Shown: positions 44,516 to 64,000 of the stretch, piece by piece | Numbering within the stretch: position 1 is the stretch's first letter | How the letters are laid out: each line of letters begins with the position of its first letter | Translations under genes and position numbers: made by a program | The notes under the pieces: model-generated | The model's database searches: none | The model's input: the letters and a program-made list of their open reading frames with translations, nothing else | What the model was told of the DNA's origin: nothing | Origin: Candidatus Poribacteria bacterium | Lineage (GTDB): Bacteria; Poribacteria; WGA-4E; WGA-3G | Reading direction: 5' to 3' | DNA: 64,000 bases | Assembly: GCA_965205015.1 (NCBI GenBank) | Contig: OZ242029.1 | Coordinates: 768,001-832,000 of the forward strand

Positions 44516-46216
44516 CTACGTCTGCCCAAGAACCTTCAGAAACGCTTCATCGTCTTTTACATCCGAAAATTCAGGGGTCTCAAGGAAAGTCGGGTAGTAT
44601 GTATCCTGATTATAAGGATCTACCACATAGTACGCCTGAGCGGACTTTAAATGATGTAAAGTTTTTTCTCTGTCCTTTTCAGAAGCCCAGATGCTTGCAG
44701 CCAGCTGGAAGTGTCCATAATGGTTGTTATCTTCCAAATCAATGGCGATTTGTAGGAAACATCTCGCCTCGTTATACTTCTTAGACCACAACAGACAACA
44801 ACCGATATCGTGTGCTAACCACATAAGGTCGTCGAGATTTACAGGTTGACCCGCATCCCGTTTCTTCAACTCTCCTTCCATATAGGCACTCACTTCCGTA
44901 AAAATTCGATCGAAACGTCCCCAATCTCCTTGTTTACCGTATATGAGAAGTCGACTTTCTTTCGCAATCAACCAGAATTGAAAATAATGCTCTGAACCGG
45001 GTTCGTTGTTAGCACGTTCCAACTTTTCTATCTCAAGGAAGGCTTCATCGAACCGGTCGTTGCATCGTAATACATCTATTCCGGCCTGCAGGAATTCACA
45101 ACGCCTGAAGTAACTCACGCCTGGGTTCTCTAAGCGTTCAGAGGCGTCATTATATAGCTGAATCCAGTCATCAATACGACCTTCCGCCGCCCAACATCCG
45201 GATCCCCCCAGATTAGCACCAGCCTCCAACACATATTTATCCGGCAAGTGCTGGCACGTCCAACAGTAAAGCCGAGAGTGTTCCTCAATAGCTGCTCGAT
45301 TTCTTCCAAGAGAAGCGAGACTATCGACTAACCTGTCATGCGCCCAGAAACGCTCCGTATCACCCAGCGCGTCCTCCATATACCTACGGAGTAGAGGTAC
45401 CCGCTTTTCCATGCCGAGTTTGCCCATATACGGGTATATCTCATCGGCAGCAAGATGCACCAATTCAGGCGTGATTTCACCCTTAAGTGCGTCTTCAATC
45501 TCGTTACAGGCTTCTGTAAGAATACCCACTCTGGATGCAGGATCAGATTTCACTTTTTCCATGAATAAATTGAACTTACTGCGAACTTCTTCTAATTGTG
45601 TCATGACATTCTCCTTCAGATTATCTGATAGTTGTAGATGACCAAAAAATTCTGGATTCAAGAGTTCTTGCTCTGTTCGCAAACGCTTTCGCGCCCGTTG
45701 GAGTCGACTCGTAATTGTGTTCACCGACACCCCCATGAATTTGCCGATCTCTTTCGTTGACATTTCGTCCAGATAGAAGAGGGTTACAACTGTGCGTTCC
45801 TTCTCCGGCAGTTTTTCTAAAAGTCTTTTCACAAGTTCATGGTAATGCTCGGTTCTCTCTGTCATTCGCTGTTCTGATATATGATGCGTATAAGAGGACT
45901 GCTCGATTTCTTCTACAGGTGTATCCTCCAGGGATTGCATCATAGACTTTTGGCTTCGCATCCAATCAATGCAAAGCCGATTTGCGATAACATGGAGCCA
46001 CCCCGCAAATTGATCGGGATTCTTGAGCGTCGGAAGTTTTCTGTATGCCCTCAGGAAGGTATCTTGCATAATCTCTTCCGCATGGTGAAAATCTTGGATC
46101 TTCCGCCATGCCAGTGCATGAACGCTTTTTTGGTACTTTTCGACCAAGATGCTAAACGCAGCGTCGTCCCCAGATAAAATTTTGCGAATCAATTGAACAT
46201 CGTCTTCTCTTTCCAC
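44516..46216 (-). CDS. ECF sigma factor with a C-terminal ~360-aa helical TPR-like domain (paralog 1)
   Basis: sigma2 (AEEIMQDTFLRAY...F.GWL..IA) and sigma4 (LPEKERTVVTLFY...EIG...TITSRLQRARKRL) followed by a helical repeat-like extension. Confidence 0.88.
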   Translation of the reverse strand: MEREDDVQLIRKILSGDDAAFSILVEKYQKSVHALAWRKIQDFHHAEEIMQDTFLRAYRKLPTLKNPDQFAGWLHVIANRLCIDWMRSQKSMMQSLEDTPVEEIEQSSYTHHISEQRMTERTEHYHELVKRLLEKLPEKERTVVTLFYLDEMSTKEIGKFMGVSVNTITSRLQRARKRLRTEQELLNPEFFGHLQLSDNLKENVMTQLEEVRSKFNLFMEKVKSDPASRVGILTEACNEIEDALKGEITPELVHLAADEIYPYMGKLGMEKRVPLLRRYMEDALGDTERFWAHDRLVDSLASLGRNRAAIEEHSRLYCWTCQHLPDKYVLEAGANLGGSGCWAAEGRIDDWIQLYNDASERLENPGVSYFRRCEFLQAGIDVLRCNDRFDEAFLEIEKLERANNEPGSEHYFQFWLIAKESRLLIYGKQGDWGRFDRIFTEVSAYMEGELKKRDAGQPVNLDDLMWLAHDIGCCLLWSKKYNEARCFLQIAIDLEDNNHYGHFQLAASIWASEKDREKTLHHLKSAQAYYVVDPYNQDTYYPTFLETPEFSDVKDDEAFLKVLGQT

Positions 46217-46330
46217 GAAACTTCCTCCTCATGAACAGATTGAATCGTGTTGCATTCGCCAAAAGATTTAATCAAACGCCAATCTTTAAAATTAAGCAAT
46301 ACAGTCCGATTTACACTCTCTATTATTAAG

Positions 46331-46357
46331 GACGAAAGTTTAATCAAAAAACGTGCA
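46331..46357 (-). promoter_or_regulatory. ECF-type promoter TGCACG-N17-CGTC upstream of ECF-TPR paralog 1
   Basis: Same motif and spacing at 51452-51478 and 53014-53040. Confidence 0.7.
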
Positions 46358-46529
46358 TTCTGCCGAAAAAACGTTCAAGTCATTGTAAATTTTATTATAA
46401 GTCAGGGTGATCGATGGATGGAACAGCGAAAAGAGCAGCACAAATGCTTTTCTGTCGTGCGGTGTCCGAAGCAAAGAACACAAGGGCACATTTGTTTCTT
46501 TGTAATATGGGAAGTTTGAAAACTATACG

Positions 46530-47936
46530 CTAAATTTCAATGCGTACAAATGCCAGGAACGCTCCGGAGAAAAAAACAACGAAAAATAGCGTTAACAACA
46601 GCAAATTCATCGCCGCTGTGTTGAAATCACGACCAAAGTTGCGTGTGTCTTCAAATTTGGGAACTGCTTCTGGATTGACGGGTTTCTGCGATACCCCCTC
46701 GCGAACACCAATGATATGAAGACTCTCCGGATCCGCTCTATCGGTATCAACAATGAATTCGCGAAATTGTTGAGCGTAGGATTGAACATTCTCTAAGAAT
46801 TGCAGGTGTCGCTCAAAACCGGTTCCAGCGAACGACTCAAGGAGATGCTCCACAATTGTGACAGGTGAAAGACGGGTGATGGTGCGCGCCCGGTTCACTT
46901 GAGAAATCCGCCGTTTTAAGTGTTCTTCGCGCAAGCGTTCCCGCTGTTCTGCGTCTTGGGTAACATACTCGCCTGACAATTGTAATTTTTTTCTTTCATC
47001 TTCGCGGACTTCATGCCAATGAGTGTCGAATTCCTCCCTACGTTCCCAAAATCCAAGACTCGTCCTGAACGATGAAGAGCGTCCCTCGGATGAAGAGTGC
47101 CCGGCGATCGAAGCAAGTGTACTGGGCATAAAAACAACAAGCGTGACCCAAGCTAACAGAAGTATCACAAGGCTTACTGCGCTCCGTTGCACACGCGCCG
47201 ATACCAATAAACCTAATGCAAGAAAAAGACAGGTGTACAGGAGCGCAATAAAGTAGATGACACCTAAACGTCCCCACGCATCTGCGCTAAGGTAAACATC
47301 ACTTGACATAGAGATTACCAACAGATTCACCAACACGGCAAGCGTAAATGGAATACTCATGCTTACCAACGCCCCTAAAAATTTGCCAATCAGCACAGTG
47401 TGCCGCGGAATCGCATTTGCCAACATTAATCGCAATGTACCCTGTTCACGTTCATTGGAGATGGAATCGAAGGTGAACAGGAGCGCGAGGAGACTTAAGA
47501 CATAGCCGATGATAAAACCCCAGTCCACTTTGGTAACCTCTGGGTCTAGGTTGTCCCGATTGGGGGTGGCAGATGGATATCCGAGTGTCCATAAGCCCTC
47601 TAAGCCACGTTCCTGCCAACTCCAGCTCTGAAAACTACTGACATGTGCGGACAAAAACGCTTCACCGCGCGCTGCGCAGAAGTGGAGGGGGGATGGTTTT
47701 TTGTGAAGATCCCCAGGTCCCTTTTGTGCGAGTGTATAGAAACTTGCGTTGGCATGAGACTTTAAACGGTTTTGATGTGCAGCGACATTCTCGCTATACT
47801 TCTGAACCCGCTCTGGATGCTCTCGGAGATGCAGAACGGCATTGGTCAGCATCAAACCCAAGAGCAGGACTGTTGCAAGCGCGAATCGGAGGCTATTGAG
47901 ATTATCATAGAGTTCGCGTTTTACGATATGCCACAT
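46530..47936 (-). CDS. ABC-2 type permease (type B of the pair)
   Basis: FDSISNEREQGTLRLMLAN...LIGKF motif; paralog of 59038..60489. Confidence 0.88.
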   Translation of the reverse strand: MWHIVKRELYDNLNSLRFALATVLLLGLMLTNAVLHLREHPERVQKYSENVAAHQNRLKSHANASFYTLAQKGPGDLHKKPSPLHFCAARGEAFLSAHVSSFQSWSWQERGLEGLWTLGYPSATPNRDNLDPEVTKVDWGFIIGYVLSLLALLFTFDSISNEREQGTLRLMLANAIPRHTVLIGKFLGALVSMSIPFTLAVLVNLLVISMSSDVYLSADAWGRLGVIYFIALLYTCLFLALGLLVSARVQRSAVSLVILLLAWVTLVVFMPSTLASIAGHSSSEGRSSSFRTSLGFWERREEFDTHWHEVREDERKKLQLSGEYVTQDAEQRERLREEHLKRRISQVNRARTITRLSPVTIVEHLLESFAGTGFERHLQFLENVQSYAQQFREFIVDTDRADPESLHIIGVREGVSQKPVNPEAVPKFEDTRNFGRDFNTAAMNLLLLTLFFVVFFSGAFLAFVRIEI

Positions 47937-47940
47937 TTTT

Positions 47941-48063: not shown

Positions 48064-48065
48064 CT

Positions 48066-49577
48066 TTACACTTCACTTTTGACGAAAATCAGAAATATCA
48101 GGATGAAAATAACGACATTCATCATGAGCAAGATGCCTACATCCGGCAAGGCTCGCTTAGCATTTGTGTTCACATTGCCCCTTTGAAAAGCAAATTCTGG
48201 AAGAATGCTCCAATCCGCTGCGCCCTGGTCTGAGGAGAACCACTGTCGAGATCCAAATGCCTCTTTATCGTAGAGAGCGTCGATCACTTCCTGTCTGTAT
48301 CGTCTCGCTGCGTCGAAGAAATCTCTGACACCGTGCAAGTCAGTATCGGTCCATGCTTGTGTTGCAGCATCATACAGCCCCACGGGTGAAAGTTTCAAAT
48401 AGAGTCGCTTCACATTTGCCGGGTGAATGAAGATATCCTCCAGCGCAGGTTTTCGGACAAGCCAGGTCTGGTCGGCCGTACGGATAATCAGCGAACCGAG
48501 GAAACGGAAATGACTCTGGGCGTGAGGTATCTTGTGTTCCTCTTTCTCATCAAACCCTTCAAACGCCAAGATACCTTCAAAGGAGTATTTTAGCGTCCGG
48601 GGGTCACCCCAGAAGTAAGCGTAAGGGTTGGATCCACTGCCTCTTAATCCAAGATTCCAATCTATTCCTGGGAAAGCGTCGGTAGCGAGGAAATGCCTCC
48701 GTTCTCTCTCAAATTCTCCTTCCCACATCTGTTTAATTTGACTAAAAGCGGAGGCAGCACGCGCCTGCGGTGCTTCAGAGCGGGGGATCACAGCAAGAAT
48801 CGTATTCGGATAGATGAGGACTAAAAACCCCCAAACGAACATCGAGAGCATCAATGCAGTACTCGTTCGACACGTCGCCGCCGAAATCAGCAGTCCGATG
48901 AGGTAAAACACTGACAGATACGCAACGGATGCCAAAAGAATCCCGCCGATCCGTAAAAAATCATCGGTGTTTAGAGAAATGGAAGGGGTCGTCGTCAGCA
49001 AGATGACGGCGAGGAGAAGGCTTATTAGCAATGGCACGAGTAGGCAGATCATCGCACTGATGTATTTGGCAAGCAGGACATGCCCGCGACGGACGTGCGA
49101 CATCAAGACGAGACGTAATGTGCCACGCTCGTATTCTCCCGCGAGGGTATCGTAGGCGAAAATCAATGCCAATAAGCTCAGGATCACCTCAAAGATAAAA
49201 ACAATATCCATGGAAGCAAACATATCCATAAACGGATTATCCGCCCCATGCATTCCGGCATCCCACAGCGATGGAACATACGTATGTGATACCTGTACCT
49301 GGTTTCCAACCCGTTTATCGTATCCAGCATTGAAAATGCTCAATGGATTGGGGGGACGGTCGATACGCACTTCACCTGCTGAATAGGTTTTTTTCGCCTG
49401 CATCTGTCGCTGATGCGTTTTGACAGCGTCGTTGTAGTCCATCAATCGCTGTTCATAATCCTTAAGAAGCACAGCAGTATTGGCGACAACAAGCAACAAC
49501 GTAATAAAGACAGCTGCAGCGAAGCGGAACGTCATCAGGTTGTCGAGGAGTTCTCGGCGGATAAGCGTTGTTAACAT
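48066..49577 (-). CDS. ABC-2 type permease (type A of the pair)
   Basis: RPPNPLSIF and AYDTLAGEYERGTLRLVL motifs; paralog of 60639..62201. Confidence 0.88.
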   Translation of the reverse strand: MLTTLIRRELLDNLMTFRFAAAVFITLLLVVANTAVLLKDYEQRLMDYNDAVKTHQRQMQAKKTYSAGEVRIDRPPNPLSIFNAGYDKRVGNQVQVSHTYVPSLWDAGMHGADNPFMDMFASMDIVFIFEVILSLLALIFAYDTLAGEYERGTLRLVLMSHVRRGHVLLAKYISAMICLLVPLLISLLLAVILLTTTPSISLNTDDFLRIGGILLASVAYLSVFYLIGLLISAATCRTSTALMLSMFVWGFLVLIYPNTILAVIPRSEAPQARAASAFSQIKQMWEGEFERERRHFLATDAFPGIDWNLGLRGSGSNPYAYFWGDPRTLKYSFEGILAFEGFDEKEEHKIPHAQSHFRFLGSLIIRTADQTWLVRKPALEDIFIHPANVKRLYLKLSPVGLYDAATQAWTDTDLHGVRDFFDAARRYRQEVIDALYDKEAFGSRQWFSSDQGAADWSILPEFAFQRGNVNTNAKRALPDVGILLMMNVVIFILIFLIFVKSEV

Positions 49578-49614: not shown

Positions 49615-51333
49615 CTACTTCTGCCCGAGAACCTTCAGAAACTCTGGGTCATCCTTTACATCCGAAAATTCCGGAGTTTTAAGGAAAGACGGGTAGTAGC
49701 TATCCATATAATTGTAGGAACTAACTATATAATCGCTCTGAGCGATCTTCAAATGGTGTAAAGTCTTCTCTCGGTTTTTCTCAGATGCCCAGACGCTCAC
49801 AGCAAGCATGAAGTGATTATAATCGTTGTAATTTCCCAAATCGATGGCGAGTTGTAGCAAACGTTTCGCTTCATCATACCTCTTCGCCCATACCAGACAA
49901 CAACCGATATTATGAGCAGTACAAACAAGCTCATAGATATTTACGGGATAACCGGCACTCCGTTTTTCGACTTCTCCTTCAATAAACGTCCTTGTATCCA
50001 TCAAGACTCGATCGAAACGATCCCAATCTCCCTGTTTGCTATACACCCGAAGTCGATTCTCTCTTATCGCCAACCAGAATCGAAAATAACTCCGCCAACC
50101 CGGTTCGCCATTGGCACGTTCCAACTTTTCTATCTCAAGAAGTGCCGCATCTAACCTATCGTTCCTTATTAAGATATCTGATCCAAATTGCAGAAAATCG
50201 CAACGACTGTACTGACTCACTTCAGGGTTCTCTAAGCGTTCAGATGCCTCATTGTAAAGTTGAATCCAGTCATCAATACGGCCTTCCGCCGCCCAACATC
50301 CAGCAGTGTTCGGATTAGAAACAATCCGCAACACATATTTTTCTGAGTGCTTGCATGCCCAACGGTAAAGACGCGTCTGTTCCTCAATAGCTTCTTGATT
50401 TCTCCGAAGAAAAGCGAGGCTTTTGACTAACCTGTCATGTGCCCAGGAACGCTCCGTATCATCTGGAGTGTCATCCATATACTTCCGGAGTAGAGGGAGC
50501 CGTTTTTCCATGCCGAGACTGCCCATATACGGGTATATCTTATCAACCACAAGACGCACCAATTCAGGCGTAATTTCACCCTTAAGTGCATCTTCAATCT
50601 CGTTGGCGGCTTCCTTAAGAATATCCTCCCTTGATGCAGGGTCAGATTTCACTTTTTCCATGAATGCATCGAATTTGCTGCGAAGTTGCTCTAATTGATT
50701 CATAATATTCTCCTCCAGATTATCTGATAACGGTAAATGACCAAAGAATTCTTGATCCAAGAGTTCCGGATCTGTTTGTAAACGTTTTCGCGCCCGGTGG
50801 AGCCGACTCGCAATTGTGTTTACCGGCACGCCCAAAAATTTGCCGATCTCTTTCGTCGGCATTTCGTCAAGATAGTAGAGTGTTACGACCGTGCGTTCAT
50901 TTTCTGGCAGTTTTTCTAAAAGCTGTTGGACAAGATCACGGCAATACTCTGTTCTCTCCGTCATCCGCTGTTCTGACATGTGGTGTGTATAAGAGGATTC
51001 CTCAATTTCTTCCAAACGTGTGCCTTCCAAAGATTGCATCGCAGGCTTGTGCTTCTGTATCCTCTTTTGCTTTCGCATCCAATCAATGCAAAGCCGATTG
51101 GCGATGACATAGAGCCACCCAGCAAATTGATCGGGATTTTTAAGCGTCGAGAGTTTTTTGTATGCCTGAAGGAAGACTTCTTGCATAATATCCTCAGCGT
51201 AGTGATAATCGCCGATCTTCCGCCATACAAGGGTATGAACGCTCTTTCGGTACCTTTCGACCAAGATGCCAAACGCAGCGTCGTCCCCGGATAAAATTTT
51301 GCGAATCAGTTGAACATCGCTTTCTTTTTCCAC
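49615..51333 (-). CDS. ECF sigma factor with a C-terminal TPR-like domain (paralog 2)
   Basis: Collinear paralog of 44516..46216; GTG start MEKESDVQL after GGAGG SD. Confidence 0.88.
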   Translation of the reverse strand: MEKESDVQLIRKILSGDDAAFGILVERYRKSVHTLVWRKIGDYHYAEDIMQEVFLQAYKKLSTLKNPDQFAGWLYVIANRLCIDWMRKQKRIQKHKPAMQSLEGTRLEEIEESSYTHHMSEQRMTERTEYCRDLVQQLLEKLPENERTVVTLYYLDEMPTKEIGKFLGVPVNTIASRLHRARKRLQTDPELLDQEFFGHLPLSDNLEENIMNQLEQLRSKFDAFMEKVKSDPASREDILKEAANEIEDALKGEITPELVRLVVDKIYPYMGSLGMEKRLPLLRKYMDDTPDDTERSWAHDRLVKSLAFLRRNQEAIEEQTRLYRWACKHSEKYVLRIVSNPNTAGCWAAEGRIDDWIQLYNEASERLENPEVSQYSRCDFLQFGSDILIRNDRLDAALLEIEKLERANGEPGWRSYFRFWLAIRENRLRVYSKQGDWDRFDRVLMDTRTFIEGEVEKRSAGYPVNIYELVCTAHNIGCCLVWAKRYDEAKRLLQLAIDLGNYNDYNHFMLAVSVWASEKNREKTLHHLKIAQSDYIVSSYNYMDSYYPSFLKTPEFSDVKDDPEFLKVLGQK

Positions 51334-51451
51334 GAAATTTCCTCCGAATAAATAGATTGGACCCTGTATACCCTCGCCAAAGCGTTTAATCAAATACCAA
51401 GTTTTATGCAATTAAGCAATATGAGGTAGTTTACACCTTCTATATATTAAA

Positions 51452-51478
51452 GACGAAATTTTGGGTAGAAAACTTGCA
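51452..51478 (-). promoter_or_regulatory. ECF-type promoter TGCAAG-N17-CGTC upstream of ECF-TPR paralog 2
   Basis: Conserved motif and spacing with 46331-46357 and 53014-53040. Confidence 0.7.
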
Positions 51479-51538
51479 TTCTGGGGAAAAAATGAAAAAC
51501 TGGATTTTTTAGTAGGTGTTTTGTGAGTGTCAGGCAAC

Positions 51539-51596: not shown

Positions 51597-51938
51597 CTAA
51601 GCCGACAATCCAGCAACAGCAGCGTCCTCACTGTCAAAATGTTCAAACAGATTAACCACACGACTCAGAACAATGAGATTTCTGATATGTTTTCCGACAT
51701 TGATGACACCCACGCGTCCCTGTTTTCGCGACGCAGCAGCGTATGCCTCCATCAAGGTGCCAAGACCTGAACTATCGATCCGATTGACCTGCTCGAAATT
51801 GATGAGGATACGTGGGGTATCAGAAGCCTCTATTTGTGGCAAGATAACTTTCCGTAAGTCTGATACGGAGCGTCCGCCCACCTTTCCAGTGGGTTTCAAA
51901 ATCGAGATACCATTTTGCTGGCGAATTTGCGTTGTCAT
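51597..51938 (-). CDS. STAS domain anti-sigma factor antagonist
   Basis: ILINFEQVNRIDSSGLGTL with the conserved phospho-Ser motif DSSG. Confidence 0.92.
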   Translation of the reverse strand: MTTQIRQQNGISILKPTGKVGGRSVSDLRKVILPQIEASDTPRILINFEQVNRIDSSGLGTLMEAYAAASRKQGRVGVINVGKHIRNLIVLSRVVNLFEHFDSEDAAVAGLSA

Positions 51939-52811: not shown

Positions 52812-53013
52812 CTGCAGTTCTCCTCCTTTTGCCTATATAGAGTTCGTTGAGGGAAAAAAGATAGTAAAAAATTTGTCAGGTGTCGTTACTACAAACGAGT
52901 TCCAAAACAGTTGCATTTTTTATCAAAACCTCCGAGTCTAAAACCGCCTTGCTTCAGCTGGGGTTACGAACGCACAGATGGTTCTTTTACTGTTCACGCT
53001 CTCTATTATTAAA

Positions 53014-55454: not shown

Positions 55455-57665
55455 TCATGGCGATTCTGACAAATGCTCATCAAACCAAGAAAGCATCCGT
55501 TGCCAATAATCAGCCACATTCGGATAACGCCATGATGTGACTTGCGAATGTCCCTCACCTTCATAACGCGCTAAAACGGCCTTTTTTCCCAGTCTACGCA
55601 AGCCAGAGAACATTTCTCCTGCCTGTGGGACAGCAGGGACACCATCCAAGGCACCAACAACTAACAACAGCGGCGTCTCCACCTTGTCCAGAAAAAAGAT
55701 AGGGGAGTTTTCGATGTATCGGTCCTGGAACTCCCAGAGCGACCCACCCATTTTGCCCTGTCCTTTTTCTGCCCAATCGATCCACTGGCTATCTCCCTCT
55801 TCCGTCAAATGCCCATAGAAACTAATGAGATTCCCCACCGGCGCACTACTGACAGCTGCACTAAACCTTGATGTTTGTGTAATCAGAGCGTTGACGCAGT
55901 AACCTCCGTAACTGTGCCCCATTATTCCTAAACGGTTGGGATCGGCAATTCCCATATCAATTAGCGTATCTATACCAGAGAGCACCATCTCCGTCAACTC
56001 TCGGACCGGCGCGTTGGTTTCCATTGGGGTATCGGGAAGAAAGACGACGTAATCTTGCTTCGTCAGCAGAAAATTGCCCCCATAGCGATCTGTGCCGAAA
56101 TCGTTAAATTGATACGAGAGCAAAGAACCCCCGTAGACCTCCGTAATTAATGGATAGTGTTTGCCCTCTACATAGTCTGGTGGGAGCAGCAAGGCACCTC
56201 TAAGGTCTTTTCCAGAAGGTGTCTGCCAAGTGACGAGTTGAGAAGTCCCAAGTCGTTCTGTTTCAATATCTGGGTTCAGTCGAGTGAGTTGCTGTGGATT
56301 TTGAAAGTCGGTGTCCGCTACCCACACATCGGGCGCGTGATTTACGTCCTCAATGCTGTAGAAAATATCCCCCGTTTGAGGTGCAACATCCATGTTTCTA
56401 CCCATAGGATTATAATTACGCTTTTCCTGAACCAACCGTGTGATCTCGCGCGTTTTCAGATTGACGCGATGAAAACCGTGCTGTTCACTGTTTGAATGGA
56501 CGGTATGCATGTATATTGACTCGGTGCAGTCTGGCGACCAAACAGTGTCTGCTTCCGCTTGCCGAACAATTCGAACAACACGTCCATCAAATCCGTCTGT
56601 CAATTTTTCAATAGCGCGATCAGCGATCGTAATTCGCCAGAGATCCCCCCGGGCAACACAGAATAGGTGTTTACTATCAGAACTCCACAAAGGCGGATGC
56701 GAACTATTTGTTAGTTCAATATCGGTGTCTTGGGTGAGATTTAGTTGGCTACCGTCAACTGTCGAAATGAGGAAAAGCTCATCTTTTGCAGCCTTATTCT
56801 CTGTCGGAAACGCAACGTAGCGACCATCTGGCGACCAAGTAAACAAACGTCCCCATCCAGATTTCAGCGAGTCAGCAAGTAATTTCGGAGGTCCTCCATT
56901 TAGCGACGAAAGATAGAGTTCGTACAGTAGTTGAGCGTTACTTTCTAACCCTTGAAAACTCGTAAACGCCGCGGTCGCTCCATCAGGGGCAACACGGATA
57001 CCAGATGGATAGAGTCCCTGCGCTAACGTTTCGACTTCTCCTGTATCAACCCTTATCATCCCAAGGTCTGCGCGATATCGCGCGTCAAACCACGAAGTCC
57101 GCCGCGGTCGGAATTCATTTTCCGGTTGTCCAGCAATAGGACTCGCAAAGAGTGTTACCGATGCCTTTTCCTTGTCTGGAGGTGCTTCTTCATCTGTCTC
57201 CGCTTCTGAATGCAACCTAACGATAATACGTGTTCCATCAGGTGTCCAGAGCGGTGGCTGCGCCCTTGACAAAAACGGCTGAATCCTGACATCACTCGCG
57301 AGTCGTGGGACATCTTCGCCGACCTCCCATATCCACAATTGGGCTGTTTTATGCTTATCCGAATAAAAAGCCAATCTTTTTCCATCCGGAGACCAGGCAG
57401 GTCTATAACTTGTGCCCCAATTCGGCGTGAGATTTCGCGATTCGCCACTCTGAACATCGATGAGCCAAATTTCACTTCCTTCTTGCAAGCCAGCGATACC
57501 CGTTGGAAGATATGTTTTATCTCCGGCTCCTACGCGTTTTCTGAAATAACTTTGAACAGCAACAGCAAGTTGTGTTCCATCTGGTGAAACAGCAATTGGA
57601 TCAAATAGCGTGAGGAGTTCTATCGAGAGAATGTCCTCAATACCGCTAAAAAGGTCAGTGTGCAT
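55455..57665 (-). CDS. S9 family (prolyl oligopeptidase-like) peptidase with beta-propeller
   Basis: WSPDG repeats; GIMGHSYGGY; LLVVGALD; EGHS; AGGAGG SD before MHTDL. Confidence 0.92.
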   Translation of the reverse strand: MHTDLFSGIEDILSIELLTLFDPIAVSPDGTQLAVAVQSYFRKRVGAGDKTYLPTGIAGLQEGSEIWLIDVQSGESRNLTPNWGTSYRPAWSPDGKRLAFYSDKHKTAQLWIWEVGEDVPRLASDVRIQPFLSRAQPPLWTPDGTRIIVRLHSEAETDEEAPPDKEKASVTLFASPIAGQPENEFRPRRTSWFDARYRADLGMIRVDTGEVETLAQGLYPSGIRVAPDGATAAFTSFQGLESNAQLLYELYLSSLNGGPPKLLADSLKSGWGRLFTWSPDGRYVAFPTENKAAKDELFLISTVDGSQLNLTQDTDIELTNSSHPPLWSSDSKHLFCVARGDLWRITIADRAIEKLTDGFDGRVVRIVRQAEADTVWSPDCTESIYMHTVHSNSEQHGFHRVNLKTREITRLVQEKRNYNPMGRNMDVAPQTGDIFYSIEDVNHAPDVWVADTDFQNPQQLTRLNPDIETERLGTSQLVTWQTPSGKDLRGALLLPPDYVEGKHYPLITEVYGGSLLSYQFNDFGTDRYGGNFLLTKQDYVVFLPDTPMETNAPVRELTEMVLSGIDTLIDMGIADPNRLGIMGHSYGGYCVNALITQTSRFSAAVSSAPVGNLISFYGHLTEEGDSQWIDWAEKGQGKMGGSLWEFQDRYIENSPIFFLDKVETPLLLVVGALDGVPAVPQAGEMFSGLRRLGKKAVLARYEGEGHSQVTSWRYPNVADYWQRMLSWFDEHLSESP

Positions 57666-57675
57666 TATTTTCCTC

Positions 57676-58935
57676 CTATCTTGGGTCATCACACGCTTGA
57701 CTTTGTTTGCTGCCATCACCGATGCGGTTAGAACGAAATCCCGAGATGCTTCTTTCAACACTTCGGCGCAGCATCTCATCGCTGAGATGGAACGCCTCGC
57801 GTATTGTTATTGACAGTTTCTGCTGCTGCTCTATCGAATCGAGCAATTGCTGGTTTTGCACGACAACGACAGAATCAGCATTCTCTTGAATTTCCTGTAG
57901 CGAACGTTTCGCTTGTTCGGCGCGACGTTGACCCTCAAAGTTGAATGGACAGGTCACAACCCCTACAGCCAAAGCACCTTGCTCTCGGGCGAGAGAGGCG
58001 ATCAGAGGCGAAGCACCCGCTCCTGTTCCGCCCCCCATACCGGCGATAACGAAGACAATATCCGCGTCCGCAACGATGGCGTTGAGCGTTTCCCTGTCCT
58101 CCTCAGCCGCTTTTCTACCTATCTCTGGGTTCGCGCCACATCCAAGTCCTTGGGTAGTCTTAGCACCGATCTGCACCGGTGTTGCTTCAGGGTGCTTGTC
58201 AAGTGCTTGCTGGTCTGTATTCACGGCATAAAATTCAATGTCTGTCAAACCGTCTTCAATCATTCGTTTAACGGCGTTCCCGCCCGCGCTACCGACTCCA
58301 ATAACCTTGATTATAGTTTCGGTGCGTTTGGATTCTTCTCGTTTGGATGACATAGTTCTCCCTCTTTCAGGTTCGACACCGAACTCCCTGCGTAAGAGTT
58401 CACGTGTCTGTCTTAATTTGGTCTTGATTGTGCCTATCGCCAATCCGAGTTCAGTGTGGATCTCCTTGACGCTCCACAATTCCAGATAGTATAGGACCGC
58501 AACGCGGCGCACTTTATCTGGAAGGTGATGCACTGCTTCCCTTATAGCGTCGTAGTGTTCCGTTTCCCTGAAGCGTGCGACTGCATCTTGGTCGATACGA
58601 TCCGTCAGATCCGCATAACTATAAGGAATGTCGTTTCCGGAACGATCGGCAGCAGCATAGTACCGCTTGCAAGCGTTGTAAGCAATGCGATGCAGCCACC
58701 CCCCAAAACTCTCAACGCTCCGCAGTCCACTGATATTTTCCCAGACGGCTCTCCAGACATCCATGAGAATTTCTTCGGCATCGCGGGGTTGTCTCGAATG
58801 TGCGATAATCACTTTCCAGATGCGTCGACTATAACGCGACATCAGTTCTGCAAACGCTAATTCATCACCGGCTTGTGTAAGCCCAATGAGTTCTTCATCT
58901 GTTAGAATGGCGTGCGTTGATAGATCGTATCGCAT
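57676..58935 (-). CDS. ECF sigma factor fused to an FtsZ N-terminal GTPase domain
   Basis: sigma2/sigma4 (DAEEILMDVW...F.GWL.RIA; LPDKVRRVAVLYY...TIKTKLRQTR), then IKVIGVGSAGGNAV, NTDQQAL, TQGLGCGANPEIGRKAAEE, AGMGGGTGAG and PFNFEG. Confidence 0.9.
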   Translation of the reverse strand: MRYDLSTHAILTDEELIGLTQAGDELAFAELMSRYSRRIWKVIIAHSRQPRDAEEILMDVWRAVWENISGLRSVESFGGWLHRIAYNACKRYYAAADRSGNDIPYSYADLTDRIDQDAVARFRETEHYDAIREAVHHLPDKVRRVAVLYYLELWSVKEIHTELGLAIGTIKTKLRQTRELLRREFGVEPERGRTMSSKREESKRTETIIKVIGVGSAGGNAVKRMIEDGLTDIEFYAVNTDQQALDKHPEATPVQIGAKTTQGLGCGANPEIGRKAAEEDRETLNAIVADADIVFVIAGMGGGTGAGASPLIASLAREQGALAVGVVTCPFNFEGQRRAEQAKRSLQEIQENADSVVVVQNQQLLDSIEQQQKLSITIREAFHLSDEMLRRSVERSISGFRSNRIGDGSKQSQACDDPR

Positions 58936-59037
58936 AAACAGTTCCCAATTGATTTTAACCTAAAGAGTGGACTTTTTCGGAAGGTGGTTTAAAAAAAGAA
59001 AAATCGCTGTACTTTTCGCTACGCCTCTCACAGGGAC

Positions 59038-60489
59038 CTATACCTCCGAACGCAGGAAGACGAGGAAGGCTCCTGAAAGCGACACACCGAGCAGTAAAAT
59101 GAGTAACAGAATATCGACTATAGCGGGATTGAGCGTCTCCTGAAAAGACAACTTATCCTCAAACATTGGGATAGTCTCTGGTAAGACGGACCTTTCCGAC
59201 ATGCCTTTCCGGACACCCACGAAATGAAGGCTCTCTGGATCCGCCCGATCCATTTCAACGATGAAATTTCGGAAGTGTCGGATATGAAGGCGGCAGTGTT
59301 CTAAGAATTGCAAATGCCGATTAAAGCCTGTGCCTGCCATGGATTCAAGGGCATATTGGACAACCGCTGCAGGAGAGCATCGGGTTATCTGTCTTGCATG
59401 CAGGACTTGCGCACTTTGCGCAGCGAGATGCTGGCGACTCAGCCGCTCCCGAATCTCCATGTCTTTGTTAACGAACGCCTGTTGGATCTCCAATTCTGAA
59501 GTGTCTACCCCCGCAACTTCCTCCTGAGAGGTTTCTGCGGATTGACGGCGTTCTCTTAAAGTCTCCCTTTTATCCAGGAAATCGCTCCGAATTTGGTCGA
59601 AGGCGGTCCCCTTTGTCCTCTGAAATTGATGGTGCGTTTGAATCGGAGGCATCCATCTTGTGGAGAGTGTGCCGAGGGTTGACGGCATAAACACCACGAC
59701 AGTCACCCAGATGAGCAACAGGACAACCAGACTTAACCGACTTTCCCGAGTCATCGCCGAGATAATAAGCCCAATTGCGACGAAGATACCAGCATAGCAA
59801 GAAGCAATCAGCACGATCAGTCCTAAACGCCCCCAGTCTGCGCCGCTGAGCTGCGTCCAACTCTCGGTAGAAATGATGGCGAGATTGAATAACACGGCAC
59901 AATAGAAGGCAATGAGGACCGTGATGAGGGAGCCAAGGAACTTACCCATTAATAGAGTCGGGCGCGAAATCGAATTGGCAAGACACAGCCGCAGCGTCCC
60001 GCGTTCTCGTTCTCCGGAGAGCGCGTCAAAGGTAAACAGGAGCGGCATGAAAGAGAGCAGATAGGTCACAATAAAGACCCAATCGATCCCCGTGGCAGTG
60101 GGACGAAGATTGCTAATCGCCTCCATATTCAGACGTGGAACGCCCATCGACCAAATATAGGCAAGCCCGTATAACCGCCAGAAACCACCACTCACGCTTT
60201 CGTCCGGTAGTAAGGCGTCCCCGCCATCGGCGATGAAGGCGAGCGATGCGGGGCGTTTGTAAAGCTTACCGGGTCCCTTGTGTAGCAGTTCATACAACTG
60301 CGTTCGGGATTTCAATTCGGTCTGAGATGCGTTAACCTTCTCGGAATACTTTCGAACCCGTTCCGGATGGGTTCGAAGATGCACAACGGCATTGGTTACC
60401 ATTAATGCTACGAGGATGAACGTGGTTAAGGCAAAGCGGAGACTCGTGAGGTGGTCTAAAAGTTCGCGTCTGACAACATGCCAAATCAT
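59038..60489 (-). CDS. ABC-2 type permease (type B)
   Basis: FDALSGERERGTLRLCLAN motif; paralog of 46530..47936. Confidence 0.88.
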   Translation of the reverse strand: MIWHVVRRELLDHLTSLRFALTTFILVALMVTNAVVHLRTHPERVRKYSEKVNASQTELKSRTQLYELLHKGPGKLYKRPASLAFIADGGDALLPDESVSGGFWRLYGLAYIWSMGVPRLNMEAISNLRPTATGIDWVFIVTYLLSFMPLLFTFDALSGERERGTLRLCLANSISRPTLLMGKFLGSLITVLIAFYCAVLFNLAIISTESWTQLSGADWGRLGLIVLIASCYAGIFVAIGLIISAMTRESRLSLVVLLLIWVTVVVFMPSTLGTLSTRWMPPIQTHHQFQRTKGTAFDQIRSDFLDKRETLRERRQSAETSQEEVAGVDTSELEIQQAFVNKDMEIRERLSRQHLAAQSAQVLHARQITRCSPAAVVQYALESMAGTGFNRHLQFLEHCRLHIRHFRNFIVEMDRADPESLHFVGVRKGMSERSVLPETIPMFEDKLSFQETLNPAIVDILLLILLLGVSLSGAFLVFLRSEV

Positions 60490-60638: not shown

Positions 60639-62201
60639 CTACACTTCAACTTTGATAAAAATCAAAAATGTCGCCATGAACAGGACGATATTGGTGCATA
60701 ACAGCAAAAACAGTTCAGGTAGGGCGCGATGCGCGTTGATGCCGATTTCTGCTCGCTCGAAGTGAAAACGAGGGAGGACCGACCAGTCTATATCCGCTTG
60801 ATTTGGAGCAAACCACTGCAGGCTCGCGAACGCATCTCTCTCATGAAAGGTCCCAATGAGGGTGCGGCGGTACGCCTGCGCGGTTTGAATATAATCCACC
60901 ATGCTGTTTAAATCGGTGCCTGCCCATGCGGCGGTAGCAAACGTATAAAGGCTTGCCGGACTGAACTTCATGAGACGCTCATCCCATTGTGCTTGATGGA
61001 GGGTGGTCTGTGCTACCAACTGCTGGCCGACGAAACCGACTTCGTCGGCATTCCGGATGTGCAGGGAGGCGGCGAATGCATAATAACGGCGTAAGTGTGG
61101 CACTAAAGGGTGCGCTGTATCTTTCAGTTCAAGGTTAACCCGAGGGAAGTCCCCAAGGAAGAAATATCCTGCTCCACTAAAGAGACCTGAAAACGCTTCA
61201 GAATCTGAAAATATCGGAGACTCCCCCTTAAGCGGACTATTGGCTAAGAACCGGTGTCGTTCTCTATCCGCCGCTTCCCGAATCTGCGCTATCTGCTGCT
61301 CGGTGGATCTTTTTTTTCCACGCATGTCCGCGTCTGGATTCAAGGCAAAGCGGCTCCAATTTGGATAGACGAGCACTAAAATCACCCATAAGAACATACA
61401 GAGCATCAAGGAGGTAGCGGCACGACGGGCTATCGCGGAAACGAGCAGACCGATCAGATAGAAAACCGACAGATAGACGATTGTCATTAAAACAATGCCG
61501 CCAATTCGTAGAAAATCACTTCCACTGAATTGCAAGGAACGCGCGAAGGAACACTGAATCAGGGCAAGCAATAGACTCATCAACACGGGGAGTAGCAGGC
61601 AAACCATCGCCGCAATATATTTAGCAAACAGCACATTTCCTCGCCCGACGGGATGTGAGAGCACCAAACGCAAGGTCCCTGTCTCCCAATCTCCCGCAAT
61701 CGCGTCATAAGCGAAAAGCAGAGCGATCAGACTCAACACAACCTGAAAGATAAAGACCAGGTCTATCTGTGAAAAGAGATACAGATAGGGGTTATTTATC
61801 CCGAGCGGTGCCCCTGGACTTGAGAGGGACGGGACGCTGCCAGACACCCACTGTTCTTCCTCGGGTCTGACATCAACGATGGGATTTGAGAGGGCTGGCA
61901 CACTGTCAAACGCTATATCAAGCTCACTGCCAAAACGCGTTTCCAAGCCCGCGCTAAAGAGGCTCAGGGGGTTCGGAGGACGCTGAACCTTTAACTTTAA
62001 GACCGAATAGGTGGGGGTTGCCTCGACCTTCTCGCGATTTACCGCTTCTTTCTGACTATAGTCGGCGAGACGCTCTTCATGTGCACCGATTAAGACGAAC
62101 GTATTGGCAACGACAAGTAAGAGTGTAATGACCACCGCAGCAAAAAAACGCGCACTCATCAGATGAATCAAGAGTTCCTGGCGTATCAGGGTCCGTAACA
62201 T
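60639..62201 (-). CDS. ABC-2 type permease (type A)
   Basis: RPPNPLSLF and AYDAIAGDWETGTLRLVL motifs; start MLRTLIRQE by analogy with 48066..49577. Confidence 0.88.
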   Translation of the reverse strand: MLRTLIRQELLIHLMSARFFAAVVITLLLVVANTFVLIGAHEERLADYSQKEAVNREKVEATPTYSVLKLKVQRPPNPLSLFSAGLETRFGSELDIAFDSVPALSNPIVDVRPEEEQWVSGSVPSLSSPGAPLGINNPYLYLFSQIDLVFIFQVVLSLIALLFAYDAIAGDWETGTLRLVLSHPVGRGNVLFAKYIAAMVCLLLPVLMSLLLALIQCSFARSLQFSGSDFLRIGGIVLMTIVYLSVFYLIGLLVSAIARRAATSLMLCMFLWVILVLVYPNWSRFALNPDADMRGKKRSTEQQIAQIREAADRERHRFLANSPLKGESPIFSDSEAFSGLFSGAGYFFLGDFPRVNLELKDTAHPLVPHLRRYYAFAASLHIRNADEVGFVGQQLVAQTTLHQAQWDERLMKFSPASLYTFATAAWAGTDLNSMVDYIQTAQAYRRTLIGTFHERDAFASLQWFAPNQADIDWSVLPRFHFERAEIGINAHRALPELFLLLCTNIVLFMATFLIFIKVEV

Positions 62202-62266
62202 CGTTTTCCGTTGCCTCAATTCCACGGGTTCTACTACCGAATTAGATATTTTCCAGGGATAGGTGA

Positions 62267-64000
62267 TTAGGACTTCAAGAGCATCGGCATGATGAGGTGG
62301 ATATGTCCTTCCTCACCAACCGGCTTAACAATCACAGGATCCAACGCGCTCGAGAACTCCAATGCCAAAGACGCCGTTCCAATGTGCGTGAGCGCCTCTA
62401 TCAGCATCCGAGCATCGAGACCGACACGGATACTTCCAGTGCTGGACACCACTGCTAAGGTTTCCTGCTGCTCATCTATCTCAGAATCCCTCGGCGAAAT
62501 CCGAATCCGTTGTTCATCTATCTCTAAACAGACCGTCGGCGAAATCCGAATCTGTTGTTCATCTATCTCTAAACAGAGAGCAGGGCATTTCGGATCCGAA
62601 AATGCTGAAACCTGACGTGTTGCACGCAAAATCGGCGCTTTCTGCACAACTGTACGCATCTGAGGAGACTTTGGAAAGAGTTTCTCATACTTCGGATATT
62701 CACCGTCTACCAACTGCGCCGTCAACGTGGTTCGCTCATCCGCGAAAAGAATCTGGTTCGCAACGCGTGAAACCCGTACCTCCAAGGAATCAGCAAACGT
62801 TCGTTCAATATCTTTGACGGCTTTGAGCGGGACGATAAACCCATCGTTATCCTCAGACAACCTTAAGGGTTCACACCGTGCGATGGCAATCTGCTTGCCG
62901 TCGCATCCAACGACTTCGGTCCTGTCCTCAAGCAGGTTAAAATAGAGCCCGTTTAGAAAAGTCCGCCGGACTTTCTCCGTGGACGCAGCACATTCGGTTT
63001 TGTGGAGGATCGACCGCAGGATCTCTCCATCAATCGCAAATGCTCCCGGGTCAACAGAAGGGAGTTGTGGAAATTCCTCATCCGCAAGCCCGACGATTTT
63101 GTAAACGTCATCTCCAGAAGTGATTCTAACCCGACCGTCCGCTGTCTTTGTCACGTCTATCGGTTTCTCCGCGGGCCACGCTTTAACGATATCCCCTAAT
63201 TTTTGGGCGGGGACAGTGATCGCTCCCGCTTCTTTGACTGTCCCTTCAACCTTCATTCTGATGCCAATTTCCGTGTCCATCGCCATGCATTCAATCGTGC
63301 TTCCTTCCGCACGGATGAGAACGTTTGAGGGAATAGGTGAGGTATCCTGCCCACTCGTGACACGCTGCAGCATTTGTAAAGAAGTTAAAAGCGCATCCCT
63401 TTCAAAAGTTAATTTCATTCCAAAACCCCTATTCAAATATATTTGGGCGCGACGTTCGGGTTCAATTGTGAGGTCTAAGGCTTCCTGAATCATGAATTCA
63501 TACTGCTTTAACTGTTGTCGCGCACGTCGAAGCCGACTTTTAATCGTGTTTTCTGACACACCTAAAAAGTTACTTATTTCTGTGTAGGTCATCCCCTCAA
63601 GGTAGTGAAGCGTGATAGTTGTCCGATTGCTCTCCTTCAACCTCGCGAGCAGCTTTTCGACCACGTCGCGCCGCGCTTCAGCGAAGGTCCTCGCGTGTTC
63701 TGTCGCGATATACTGGGAATACGCCTCTGTCTCTACTTCAGAGATGTCAGTGTTTTCCAGCGGCTCAGTGTGCCGCTGGTTTTTTCGGAGCCAAGCGATA
63801 CAGAGACGATCCGCAATCACATAAACCCACCGTAGAAACCGCGTCGGATCTTCCAAGGTCTCTAATTTGTGATAGACTCGCAGGAAGGTTTCCTGCGTAA
63901 TATCTTCGGCGATATGGAAATCCCCAATTTTCCGCCATGCGAGCGCGTGAACCTGTTTCTGGTACTTTCTAACCAACCTTGAAAAGGCAGTTTCATCACC
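62267..64000 (-). CDS. ECF sigma factor fused to a full-length DNA polymerase III beta sliding clamp (DnaN-like); 5' end lies outside the window
   Basis: Frame open to the window edge (GDETAFSRLVRKY); sigma2/sigma4, then MKLTFERDALL...P.IPSNVLI...D.EIGI...ITVPAQKL...EEFP...FLNG...GEYPKY...LIMPM. Confidence 0.9.
   Translation of the reverse strand, partial: GDETAFSRLVRKYQKQVHALAWRKIGDFHIAEDITQETFLRVYHKLETLEDPTRFLRWVYVIADRLCIAWLRKNQRHTEPLENTDISEVETEAYSQYIATEHARTFAEARRDVVEKLLARLKESNRTTITLHYLEGMTYTEISNFLGVSENTIKSRLRRARQQLKQYEFMIQEALDLTIEPERRAQIYLNRGFGMKLTFERDALLTSLQMLQRVTSGQDTSPIPSNVLIRAEGSTIECMAMDTEIGIRMKVEGTVKEAGAITVPAQKLGDIVKAWPAEKPIDVTKTADGRVRITSGDDVYKIVGLADEEFPQLPSVDPGAFAIDGEILRSILHKTECAASTEKVRRTFLNGLYFNLLEDRTEVVGCDGKQIAIARCEPLRLSEDNDGFIVPLKAVKDIERTFADSLEVRVSRVANQILFADERTTLTAQLVDGEYPKYEKLFPKSPQMRTVVQKAPILRATRQVSAFSDPKCPALCLEIDEQQIRISPTVCLEIDEQRIRISPRDSEIDEQQETLAVVSSTGSIRVGLDARMLIEALTHIGTASLALEFSSALDPVIVKPVGEEGHIHLIMPMLLKS
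62491..62577. repeat. 45-bp tandem duplication inside the DnaN-like domain
   Basis: 62491-62532 and 62536-62577 differ at one base; encodes CLEIDEQ(Q/R)IRISP twice. Confidence 0.9.

Follow-up and report, generated by a model that had tools for sequence, protein, structure and literature searches.

We analyzed a stretch of 64,000 nucleotides from a Candidatus Poribacteria bacterium (assembly GCA_965205015.1, contig OZ242029.1, positions 768,001 to 832,000 of the forward strand), hereafter referred to as the window. Its positions 44516–64000 harbor four genes for extracytoplasmic function (ECF) sigma factors, all on the minus strand, each of which encodes a Sigma70_r2 and a Sigma70_r4_2 domain according to the list of open reading frames (ORFs) and Pfam. 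The sigma part is followed by a C-terminal module on the same polypeptide chain, namely a complete three-domain sliding clamp (DnaN) in one case, the GTPase domain only of the cell division protein FtsZ in another and TPR-like helical repeats in the remaining two. This arrangement had been noticed in a previous sequence-only reading of the window and is confirmed by ORFs, Pfam and fold matching. The assignment to the ECF group is substantiated by the NCBIfam model TIGR02937, which scores 105.5 bits for the 44516–46216 gene product, 71.0 bits for sigma-FtsZ and 95.6 bits for sigma-DnaN against a cut-off of 42.9. The features of these genes are as follows.

62267..64000, minus strand: ECF sigma factor with a full three-domain beta sliding clamp (Pfam); the 5′ end lies outside the window
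62491..62577, minus strand: 45-bp in-frame tandem duplication, 1.9 copies, in clamp domain III (Tandem Repeats Finder)
57676..58935, minus strand: ECF sigma factor with an FtsZ N-terminal GTPase domain, 419 residues (Pfam, alignment, AlphaFold2 model)
49615..51411, minus strand: ECF sigma factor with a TPR-like helical C-terminal module (sigma domains by Pfam)
44516..46216, minus strand: ECF sigma factor with a TPR-like helical C-terminal module (sigma domains by Pfam)

The sigma-clamp gene is composed of a sigma part (about 63473–64000), a linker (about 63419–63472) and the clamp (62270–63418). Pfam recognizes DNA_pol3_beta domains 1, 2 and 3 with E-values of 1e-25, 3e-17 and 2e-12, and the protein reaches 194 bits with the NCBIfam dnaN equivalog TIGR00663, the cut-off of which is 137.65. 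The fused clamp aligns end to end with solved clamps at about 30% identity, a value read by eye from an alignment without a printed figure, and the pocket motifs LVDGEYPKYEK and MPM are kept. The 15 extra residues that result from the 45-bp duplication are also found in two of the five fused relatives that we aligned (P0123 and P0127) and are missing from the other three, so that the duplication appears to be lineage-specific. Contigs assembled from public sequencing runs possess low-depth joints inside clamp domain III, from 62331 to 62536. Judged by the domain matches, the clamp seems to be complete in most lineages that carry this fusion.

In the sigma-FtsZ gene, the sigma part (about 58381–58935) is connected by a disordered linker (about 58315–58380) to the GTPase domain including helix H7 (about 57730–58314), which is followed by a short disordered tail. 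The Tubulin/FtsZ GTPase domain is matched by Pfam with an E-value of 1e-44. The residues of the GTP-binding loops T1, T4, T5 and T6, including the GGGTG box, are invariant in 40 sigma-FtsZ orthologues. Most aligned positions match those of a solved FtsZ chain, which we take to be FtsZ of S. aureus, and this was read as about 60% identity from an alignment that prints no figure; to the FtsZ of the Poribacteria themselves the fused domain is 62–66% identical. The NCBIfam ftsZ model gives 239.7 for the window copy and thus stays below its cut-off of 295.2. The C-terminal end of canonical Poribacteria FtsZ (...EIPAFLRV...), the membrane-tether or FtsA-binding peptide, is missing from all five fusions aligned. 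A relationship to TubZ of the type III partition system TubZ/TubR was considered and rejected, as the best NCBIfam match is ftsZ, the closest solved chains are FtsZ and Pfam Tubulin_2 is found only with an E-value of 0.002, below its cut-off.

The two TPR-like ECF proteins are 71% identical over their whole length and 75% identical in their sigma parts. The TTG start listed for the gene at 49615–51411 is probably placed too far upstream. Their C-terminal portions of about 380 residues have no Pfam match, and no Pfam TPR family was found with E-values up to 0.01. An AlphaFold2 model of the 44516–46216 protein (34 sequences, pLDDT 78.5) is all-helical with stacked helical hairpins. Foldseek relates this module to the TPR proteins LGN, consensus TPR and P58IPK with E-values of about 1e-4 and target TM-scores of 0.3–0.5, which is a likeness at the level of the fold only. 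A hydrophobicity scan detected no transmembrane segment in this protein, and its linker residues 182–195 are predicted to be disordered. In the AlphaFold2 models of this protein and of sigma-FtsZ, the sigma part and the C-terminal domain are each predicted with confidence, the linker between them is disordered and their placement relative to each other is not fixed (pTM 0.51 and 0.59). A paired complex prediction of the sigma part against the FtsZ part, built on 40-row alignments, scored 0.01, which weighs neither way.

Distribution, variants and origin of the fusions

Each fusion was searched against 5.8 billion proteins, and 120 clusters at 90% identity were listed for each. All 120 listed sigma-FtsZ clusters carry the Tubulin and Sigma70_r2 domains (382–419 residues, 75–94% identity), as do all 120 listed sigma-DnaN clusters the three clamp domains together with sigma domains (517–591 residues, 69–94% identity). 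This recurrence removes chance as an explanation. The source names of the listed clusters are Candidatus Poribacteria, many of them on contigs of 4–10 Mb. Among contigs representing one genome per species, 103 stretches encode a relative; 79 loci were kept, 76 titled Poribacteria and three titled 'uncultured bacterium'. Both the sigma and the FtsZ part were matched in 54 loci of these species-representative genomes, and 49 loci hold the short sigma-FtsZ form in frames of 391–419 residues, which are complete in 48 cases, with the remaining one (L015) ending at the contig end after 368 residues. The sequence-only reading had raised the concern that the fusions might be confined to this one assembly. 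They are not, since sigma-FtsZ alone is matched with E-values up to 1e-70 in 104 of the 175 genomes of the phylum, closed chromosomes included, and each of the 150 phylum matches listed begins within the first 12 sigma residues and extends into the FtsZ domain. The fusions are located on closed chromosomes of 4.8–6.1 Mb and in many assemblies from several sources.

Support at the junctions, which the sequence-only reading had asked for, was obtained from contigs of independent public runs. The sigma/clamp junction is spanned by single contigs that come from two studies, two of these contigs without a difference (X1, 60915–63920, and X3, 62056–63932) and one with three (X4, 62834–63920). The sigma/FtsZ linker is covered by unitig pieces, of which no listed single piece has at least 31 letters on both sides; we accepted this junction as real because it is present in many assemblies. 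That assembly or gene calling has artificially joined neighbouring genes can be rejected with near certainty, as the same fusions recur on closed chromosomes and on contigs of up to 10 Mb from several sources, the contigs spanning the sigma/clamp junction show 0–3 differences and the open frame is complete in 48 of the 49 short-form loci. The proteins are real, conserved single-chain fusions of Candidatus Poribacteria genes. In public records they bear names that refer to one domain only ('sigma-70 family RNA polymerase sigma factor', 'DNA polymerase III subunit beta' or 'alpha', 'cell division protein FtsZ'). In the ESM Atlas, we found plain sigma clusters only, together with one Gemmatimonadota-labelled ECF cluster of 485 residues at 0.95.

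The sigma parts of the clamp and TPR-like proteins of the window are 49–51% identical to each other, and the sigma part of the FtsZ fusion is 25–30% identical to them. In a tree of 41 sigma parts, two clades, A and B, are separated with a support of 100 each. A profile-free search of 1.84 billion representatives for clade A returned a single full-length clamp-fusion cluster and three fragments, along with 111 further clusters in which a sigma part of 51–74% identity is joined to other C-termini. Of these, 39 clusters contain WD40 repeats; 45 of the other 72 were domain-scanned. The domains detected there include BNR/sortilin propellers, a PD40-S9 peptidase, transglutaminase, redoxin, LRR, Kelch, lectin, Big_5, HTH_20 and crystallin domains. 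One hydrophobic helix at about residues 211–240, directly after the sigma part, is present in 98 of 115 clade-A representatives, which suggests that this clade is mostly membrane-anchored. No hydrophobic segment follows the sigma part in the clamp and TPR-like fusions and in two of the three S9/PD40 fusions (P0286 and P0298), and in the HTH_20 protein P0250 such a segment exists only near the C-terminus. P0286 (936 residues) is a clade-A sigma factor fused to a PD40-S9 peptidase, and the same kind of protein is encoded 3′ of the sigma-FtsZ gene in the window; hence, neighbours and fusion partners overlap.

The modules of clade B, which are attached behind a shared linker (D/G)VEPxxGxxM, are the FtsZ N-terminal domain, FtsZ-DnaE, DnaE, clamp domains II–III and WD40. 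A hydrophobicity scan of clade B found no transmembrane segment. As such a segment is missing after the sigma part from clade B as well as from the DnaN, TPR-like and FtsZ fusions and from two of the three S9/PD40 fusions, all of these proteins should be cytoplasmic. Since the clamp occurs as a whole in clade A and as domains II–III in clade B, it was evidently joined to a sigma factor twice independently. The sigma-domain tree, proposed by the sequence-only reading as a way of detecting C-terminal shuffling, revealed repeated module swapping, and on this basis the family treats its C-terminus as an exchangeable module.

Beside the short form, a long form exists that consists of sigma, FtsZ (GTPase domain and C-terminal subdomain) and DnaE (PHP, polymerase core and fingers, with or without the helix-hairpin-helix (HHH) domain). 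It measures 1350–1743 residues in four of the five closed genomes, and 54 of the 150 phylum matches listed lie in open frames of 1221–1744 residues. The FtsZ C-terminal subdomain is present in the long and the 'full' fusions. Both the T7-loop motif NVDFAD and the DnaE motif PDIDIDF are preserved in the long form; the latter motif is presumably the polymerase active site. Its neighbourhood is conserved in the loci examined (L095–L098 and L127) and includes an enolase-like gene, a short-chain dehydrogenase, TatD and a BPD_transp_2 permease. Sigma-FtsZ forms of about 560–600 residues appear from their sequences to be truncated derivatives, one of which still ends in the first PHP residues. At one long-form locus (L124), a gene resembling IS605 OrfB/TnpB with a Cas12f1-like TNB domain (7250–8362, plus strand) lies directly after a sigma-FtsZ form of 585 residues, and this IS605-type gene may be a trace of how the DnaE part was lost. 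A sigma-DnaE fusion without FtsZ is represented by P0412. Finally, DnaN and FtsZ are fused to each other without a sigma factor in an 18-member cluster, the full-length members of which have 701–710 residues, and in 3 of the 175 genomes (G070–G072). The genes are located at 9066–11186 (minus strand) in L133 and at 8926–11007 (minus strand) in L134. In both loci examined (G071 and G072), the fusion lies directly upstream of a gene for a sigma-54 activator of 358 residues that has no N-terminal sensor domain.

As the sequence-only reading had suggested looking for canonical dnaN and ftsZ genes elsewhere, we surveyed housekeeping copies in five related closed Poribacteria genomes (G001–G005) and found both, and dnaE in addition. 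A stand-alone ftsZ is encoded in all five, in G001 behind ftsQ and ftsA and with the usual C-terminal peptide. Every one of the five also has two stand-alone dnaN genes (366–388 residues), neither of which is adjoined by dnaA, and one dnaE with an open frame of 1183–1202 residues. The fused clamps form one clade (support 100) on longer branches, nested among the stand-alone DnaN proteins of Poribacteria (support 93), to which they are 52–59% identical. This placement shows that the fused clamp descends from the phylum's own dnaN. The FtsZ tree, which comprises short, long and canonical forms, was computed without an outgroup.

Selection on the fusions was estimated as the ratio of nonsynonymous to synonymous divergence (dN/dS) by the pairwise Nei-Gojobori method, which is coarse. 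For 48 sigma-FtsZ sequences, the ratio is 0.16 in the sigma part, 0.17 in the GTPase domain, 0.39 in the linker and 0.35 in the tail; for 17 sigma-DnaN sequences, it is 0.13 in the sigma part and 0.30, 0.21 and 0.41 in the three clamp domains. The baselines from the closed genomes are about 0.06 for the canonical FtsZ GTPase domain and 0.05–0.09 for stand-alone DnaN, based on few pairs with a synonymous divergence (dS) near saturation. Neutral decay with a ratio near 1, which the sequence-only reading had considered a sign against the fusions, is hence not seen in the fused domains (0.17–0.41). Since the ratios are far below 1 and above the baselines, the fused domains are under purifying selection and are maintained less tightly than the stand-alone copies. 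Among G001–G005, dS is lower for the fused genes (about 0.5–1.0) than for canonical ftsZ and dnaN (about 1.2–1.5), which could reflect an exchange of the island among lineages or a bias of the saturation filter.

Promoter-like elements and neighbouring genes

Conserved elements that may serve as promoters precede the ECF genes, as inferred from alignments of the upstream regions.

58951..58997, minus strand: conserved promoter-like block of 47 nt directly upstream of sigma-FtsZ (alignment of 44 upstream regions)
51445..51479, minus strand: clade-A promoter-like motif upstream of the TPR-like ECF gene 49615–51411
46324..46358, minus strand: clade-A promoter-like motif upstream of the TPR-like ECF gene 44516–46216
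53007..53041, minus strand: orphan copy of the clade-A promoter-like motif, ATGCACGTTTT-N13-CGTCTTTAATA, not followed by an ECF gene

A conserved ribosome-binding stretch is located between the 47-nt block and the ATG at 58935, and a looser search for this block yielded weak extra matches only. Two more narrowly specified promoter patterns gave no match or one at the level of chance. The clade-A motif, ATGCA(C/A)GTTTT-N13-CGTC(T/C)TTAATA, is present in three copies in the window, all on the minus strand and with identical spacing, and a related element exists upstream of sigma-DnaN in relatives. The orphan copy may be a relic of a lost ECF gene. It is followed by short ORFs (e.g. 52057–52251, about 64 residues with a hydrophobic N-terminus) and then by a STAS gene.

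All large ORFs between 39418 and 64000 are encoded on the minus strand. In the order of transcription, the sigma-clamp gene is followed by two ABC-2 permeases, sigma-FtsZ, an S9 peptidase, a CBM9/DUF5916 protein, a STAS protein and the TPR-like ECF gene at 49615–51411, after which come two further ABC-2 permeases, the TPR-like ECF gene at 44516–46216, a MacB-type permease and two MsbA-like exporters. Pfam thereby confirms the permeases, S9 peptidase, CBM9/DUF5916 and STAS proteins that the sequence-only reading had placed between the ECF genes. The features in detail are:

60639..62225, minus strand: ABC-2 type permease with DUF3526, 41 bp 3′ of the sigma-clamp gene (Pfam; order kept in most of the closest related loci)
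59038..60489, minus strand: second ABC-2 type permease with DUF3526 (Pfam, synteny)
55455..57779, minus strand: S9 peptidase with PD40 propeller repeats (Pfam)
53198..55270, minus strand: CBM9/DUF5916 protein (Pfam; found again beside ECF genes in related loci)
51597..51938, minus strand: STAS protein of the anti-sigma-factor antagonist superfamily (Pfam; NCBIfam TIGR00377 with 55.0 bits, cut-off 53.45)
48066..49577, minus strand: ABC-2 type permease with DUF3526, 37 bp 3′ of the ECF gene 49615–51411 (Pfam)
46530..47936, minus strand: ABC-2 type permease with DUF3526 (Pfam)
43150..44415, minus strand: MacB-type permease (MacB_PCD and FtsX), 100 bp 3′ of the ECF gene 44516–46216 (Pfam, NCBIfam)
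41225..43075 and 39418..41277, minus strand: two MsbA-like ABC exporters after the MacB-type permease (Pfam, NCBIfam)

Permease genes thus lie within 37–100 bp 3′ of each clade-A ECF gene of the window. Across the 18 closest loci, the order of sigma-DnaN, two permeases and sigma-FtsZ is kept in most, and S9 and/or DUF5916, STAS and a TPR-like ECF gene usually come next. The STAS protein is 93–100% identical across related loci. Because the ORF of the S9 peptidase overlaps the sigma-FtsZ gene, its true start is probably downstream of 57779; this protein also gives weak NCBIfam matches, below the cut-off, to Dpp5 and to the lasso-peptide isopeptidase Atxe2. No anti-sigma Pfam family was matched among the 13 window ORFs of at least 100 residues, shorter ORFs not having been scanned, which agrees with the earlier impression that no membrane anti-sigma gene is visible.

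Next in line after the exporters comes the F1Fo ATP synthase operon, so that the island is set in an ordinary chromosome. Inside this operon, between the genes for the gamma and beta subunits, a gene for a DnaJ-C28-type conserved domain (DJC28_CD) is encoded at 32408–32881 on the minus strand. Three tandem PD40/DPPIV_N propeller genes of 336–370 residues without a peptidase domain are found at 16236–19515 on the plus strand.

Possible functions and comparison with known systems

We tentatively favor an explanation in which these proteins are one-component ECF sigma factors, in each of which a spare, flexibly linked copy of a replication or division protein replaces the usual regulatory partner and acts as a docking or input module. 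The C-terminal module would bind components of the cell itself, namely the T7 face of an FtsZ molecule that is free or located at a filament end, proteins that bind the clamp, or the clamp loader. The state of assembly of divisome and replisome would then determine whether the sigma part is available to RNA polymerase. Free sigma factor would act on the promoter-like element before its own gene and presumably also on the genes transcribed after it, which encode exporters, a peptidase and envelope proteins. We prefer this docking model because the FtsZ N-terminal domain still presents the nucleotide face that binds the T7 face of another FtsZ, because the clamp is complete in most lineages and because clamp-coupled transcription in phages offers a precedent. 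The T4 sliding clamp gp45 works with the late sigma factor gp55 and with gp33. MuC of phage Mu reportedly works with the beta clamp of its host (PMC12867686). Ties of DnaN to transcription seem, moreover, to have arisen more than once, namely in clade A, in clade B and in the DnaN-FtsZ fusion beside a sigma-54 activator. As about a hundred species-level genomes retain the fusions and the same kinds of partner were joined repeatedly and independently, the data suggest that a connection of transcription initiation with the replication/division machinery, or with the surveillance of this machinery, has been selected for.

Several observations weigh against docking as just described. The window FtsZ copy ends after helix H7, and FtsZ_C, the T7 loop and the C-terminal subdomain are absent according to Pfam and alignment. 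The DnaE part of the long forms stops at or before the HHH domain; a DnaE cut there presumably loses its clamp- and tau-binding end and would not join the replisome. Clamp domains II–III only are fused to sigma in P0258, a cluster of five members, and cannot close a ring, nor is ring closure possible in a sigma-clamp form of 486 residues, of which only 251 match the clamp. The arginine of the C-terminal motif MPMRL, which we take to be part of the peptide-binding pocket of the clamp, is replaced by leucine or serine in all five fused clamps aligned and in the window copy and is kept in both stand-alone clamps, and this change hints at an altered partner specificity of the fused clamps. The fused domains are also roughly 2–7 times less constrained than the housekeeping copies, and the neighbouring exporter genes are proposed as the regulon from gene order alone. 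Taken together, the truncated variants (domains II–III, the 251-residue clamp and the FtsZ N-terminal domain by itself) leave docking not the sole reading. The earlier proposal that replication and division folds were co-opted as sensors or tethers therefore holds in part. It fits the anatomy of the proteins and gains indirect support from the DnaN-FtsZ fusion beside the sensor-less sigma-54 activator, and the variants that are unable to close a ring or build a filament speak against a clamp or FtsZ that simply works as such.

A second explanation, which we consider possible and on balance rather unlikely, is that the fused FtsZ, DnaN and DnaE copies are integrated decoys. An attacker directed at the genuine protein, such as a phage protein, a toxin or a natural-product antibiotic of the sponge holobiont, would bind the bait, upon which the sigma factor would drive the exporters and the peptidase. 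Phages and toxins target FtsZ and DnaN, and self-resistance is conferred by an additional dnaN in the case of griselimycin and by an additional dnaE in the case of nargenicin. A toxin-antitoxin system directed against the sliding clamp has reportedly been found (PMC12795458). The fused copies keep their folds and ligand pockets and have lost parts that plug them into their machines (the FtsZ C-terminal peptide, in the short form the C-terminal subdomain, and the end of DnaE, which is cut at or before the HHH domain), several targets are combined in one chain in FtsZ-DnaE and DnaN-FtsZ, and nearby genes encode export permeases, MsbA-like exporters and an S9 peptidase. Evolution faster than that of the housekeeping copies would suit an arms race. 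Several of these features fit decoys at least as well as docking. If this were true, the decoys would also guard through the sigma-54 activator with its separate DnaN-FtsZ bait in a sister lineage, and the whole would represent a transcriptional guard system by target mimicry, for which, to our knowledge, no bacterial precedent exists. The coarse dN/dS estimates, however, are well below 1 and give no sign of positive selection, the locus adjoins the ATP synthase operon on an ordinary chromosome rather than lying in a recognizable defence island, and we know of no inhibitor of the fused domains. PADLOC, which covers known systems only and is weak evidence in this respect, returned no match for sigma-FtsZ, sigma-DnaN, sigma-FtsZ-DnaE and the 44516–46216 TPR-like protein. 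It gave one weak generic HTH match for the ECF protein of 49615–51411, and ABC and AAA-type matches only for the exporters. Membership in a known defence system was rejected, as no defence family of PADLOC matches the five fusion proteins scanned.

It is improbable, in our view, that the fusions form a structural, non-regulatory machine, i.e. a DNA-anchored filament or replication apparatus in which the sigma part is a mere anchor to DNA or RNA polymerase, similar to TubR-TubZ or to transcript-primed DNA synthesis. In the replisome/divisome fusions, the partner of FtsZ is indeed a module associated with DNA (sigma, clamp or polymerase), and the long form retains both its T7 loop NVDFAD and the DnaE motif PDIDIDF. 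The fused domain is of the FtsZ type and not of the TubZ type, however, and the commonest form possesses the N-terminal domain only and cannot polymerize alone. In close relatives of the sigma factors, the attached domains are of the WD40, TPR-like or extracytoplasmic kind, as expected of a signalling family, and DnaN-FtsZ is paired with a sigma-54 activator, which is a regulator.

Still less credible is the view that the fusions are neutral by-products of domain shuffling in an expanding sigma family, with fused domains that have no role and decay. The C-terminal modules were swapped freely, truncations and an in-frame duplication occur and constraint is looser than in the housekeeping copies, all of which would agree with it. 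Against it stand dN/dS ratios of 0.17–0.41 with intact frames across dozens of species, the invariant GTP-loop residues, the synteny that the long form keeps across the phylum and the independent fusion of the same kinds of partner more than once.

Bacterial signalling relies to a large extent on ECF sigma factors, among which those with on-board C-terminal sensors form a recognized class. If docking is correct, the Poribacteria would employ cell-cycle-coupled sigma control by co-assembly, and if the decoy explanation is correct, they would sense attack by means of a target mimic; either would be new. The hosts of these proteins are dominant sponge symbionts. Poribacteria are uncultured, and the proteins are small and soluble-looking.

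Fused C-terminal extensions are known for 19 groups of ECF sigma factors, among them a SnoaL-like domain in ECF41 and TPR in ECF42, according to the ECF reclassification (Casas-Pastor et al. 2021, PMC7826278). The proteins of the window resemble ECF41 and ECF42 in that a sigma2-sigma4 core and a C-terminal domain are united on one chain and no anti-sigma Pfam match was obtained in the ORFs scanned. The TPR-like ECF proteins recall the idea of ECF42, with TPR matches at the level of the fold only. An assignment to the ECF41 type was rejected, as the Pfam matches of the four genes include no SnoaL family. The replisome/divisome fusions differ from the known groups in that a duplicated core protein of replication or division (DnaN, FtsZ or DnaE) serves as the extension. 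In the main texts of PMC7826278 and PMC7671368, the terms FtsZ, tubulin, polymerase III, sliding clamp, Poribacteria and WD40 do not occur, and the supplements of these papers may list such architectures; the main text of a single-cell genomics paper on Poribacteria (PMC3909097) has none of the relevant terms either. Full-text literature searches retrieved no description of sigma-FtsZ, sigma-DnaN or sigma-DnaE fusions, in line with the statement of the sequence-only reading that it knew of no characterized ECF-DnaN or ECF-FtsZ protein. The use of a spare FtsZ, clamp or polymerase as the input module of a sigma factor hence seems to be unreported.

The planctomycete 'ECF01-Gob' proteins are ECF sigma factors with a long, WD40-bearing extension. 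Their arrangement of sigma part, single transmembrane helix and beta-propeller appears analogous to the majority form of clade A, in which 98 of 115 representatives have a transmembrane-like helix and 39 carry WD40. The DnaN, TPR-like and FtsZ fusions, two of the three S9/PD40 fusions and clade B differ from ECF01-Gob by having no hydrophobic segment after the sigma part.

With the clamp-coupled transcription of phages T4 and Mu, the sigma-DnaN fusion shares a sliding clamp that is joined to the initiation machinery and could couple transcription to replication. The phage link is a non-covalent clamp-binding motif, whereas in Poribacteria it is covalent and involves a chromosomal paralogue with an altered pocket residue. 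In the case of sigma-FtsZ, the GTPase domain corresponds to Poribacteria FtsZ, being 62–66% identical to it with an invariant GGGTG box, and differs from it in that the window copy stops after H7 and is devoid of the T7 loop, the C-terminal subdomain and the FtsA-binding peptide. Plant nucleotide-binding leucine-rich repeat (NLR) immune receptors carry integrated decoys, and the fusions of Poribacteria may be likened to these and to self-resistance by target duplication, in each of which a spare copy of the target is attached to, or placed beside, a response module.

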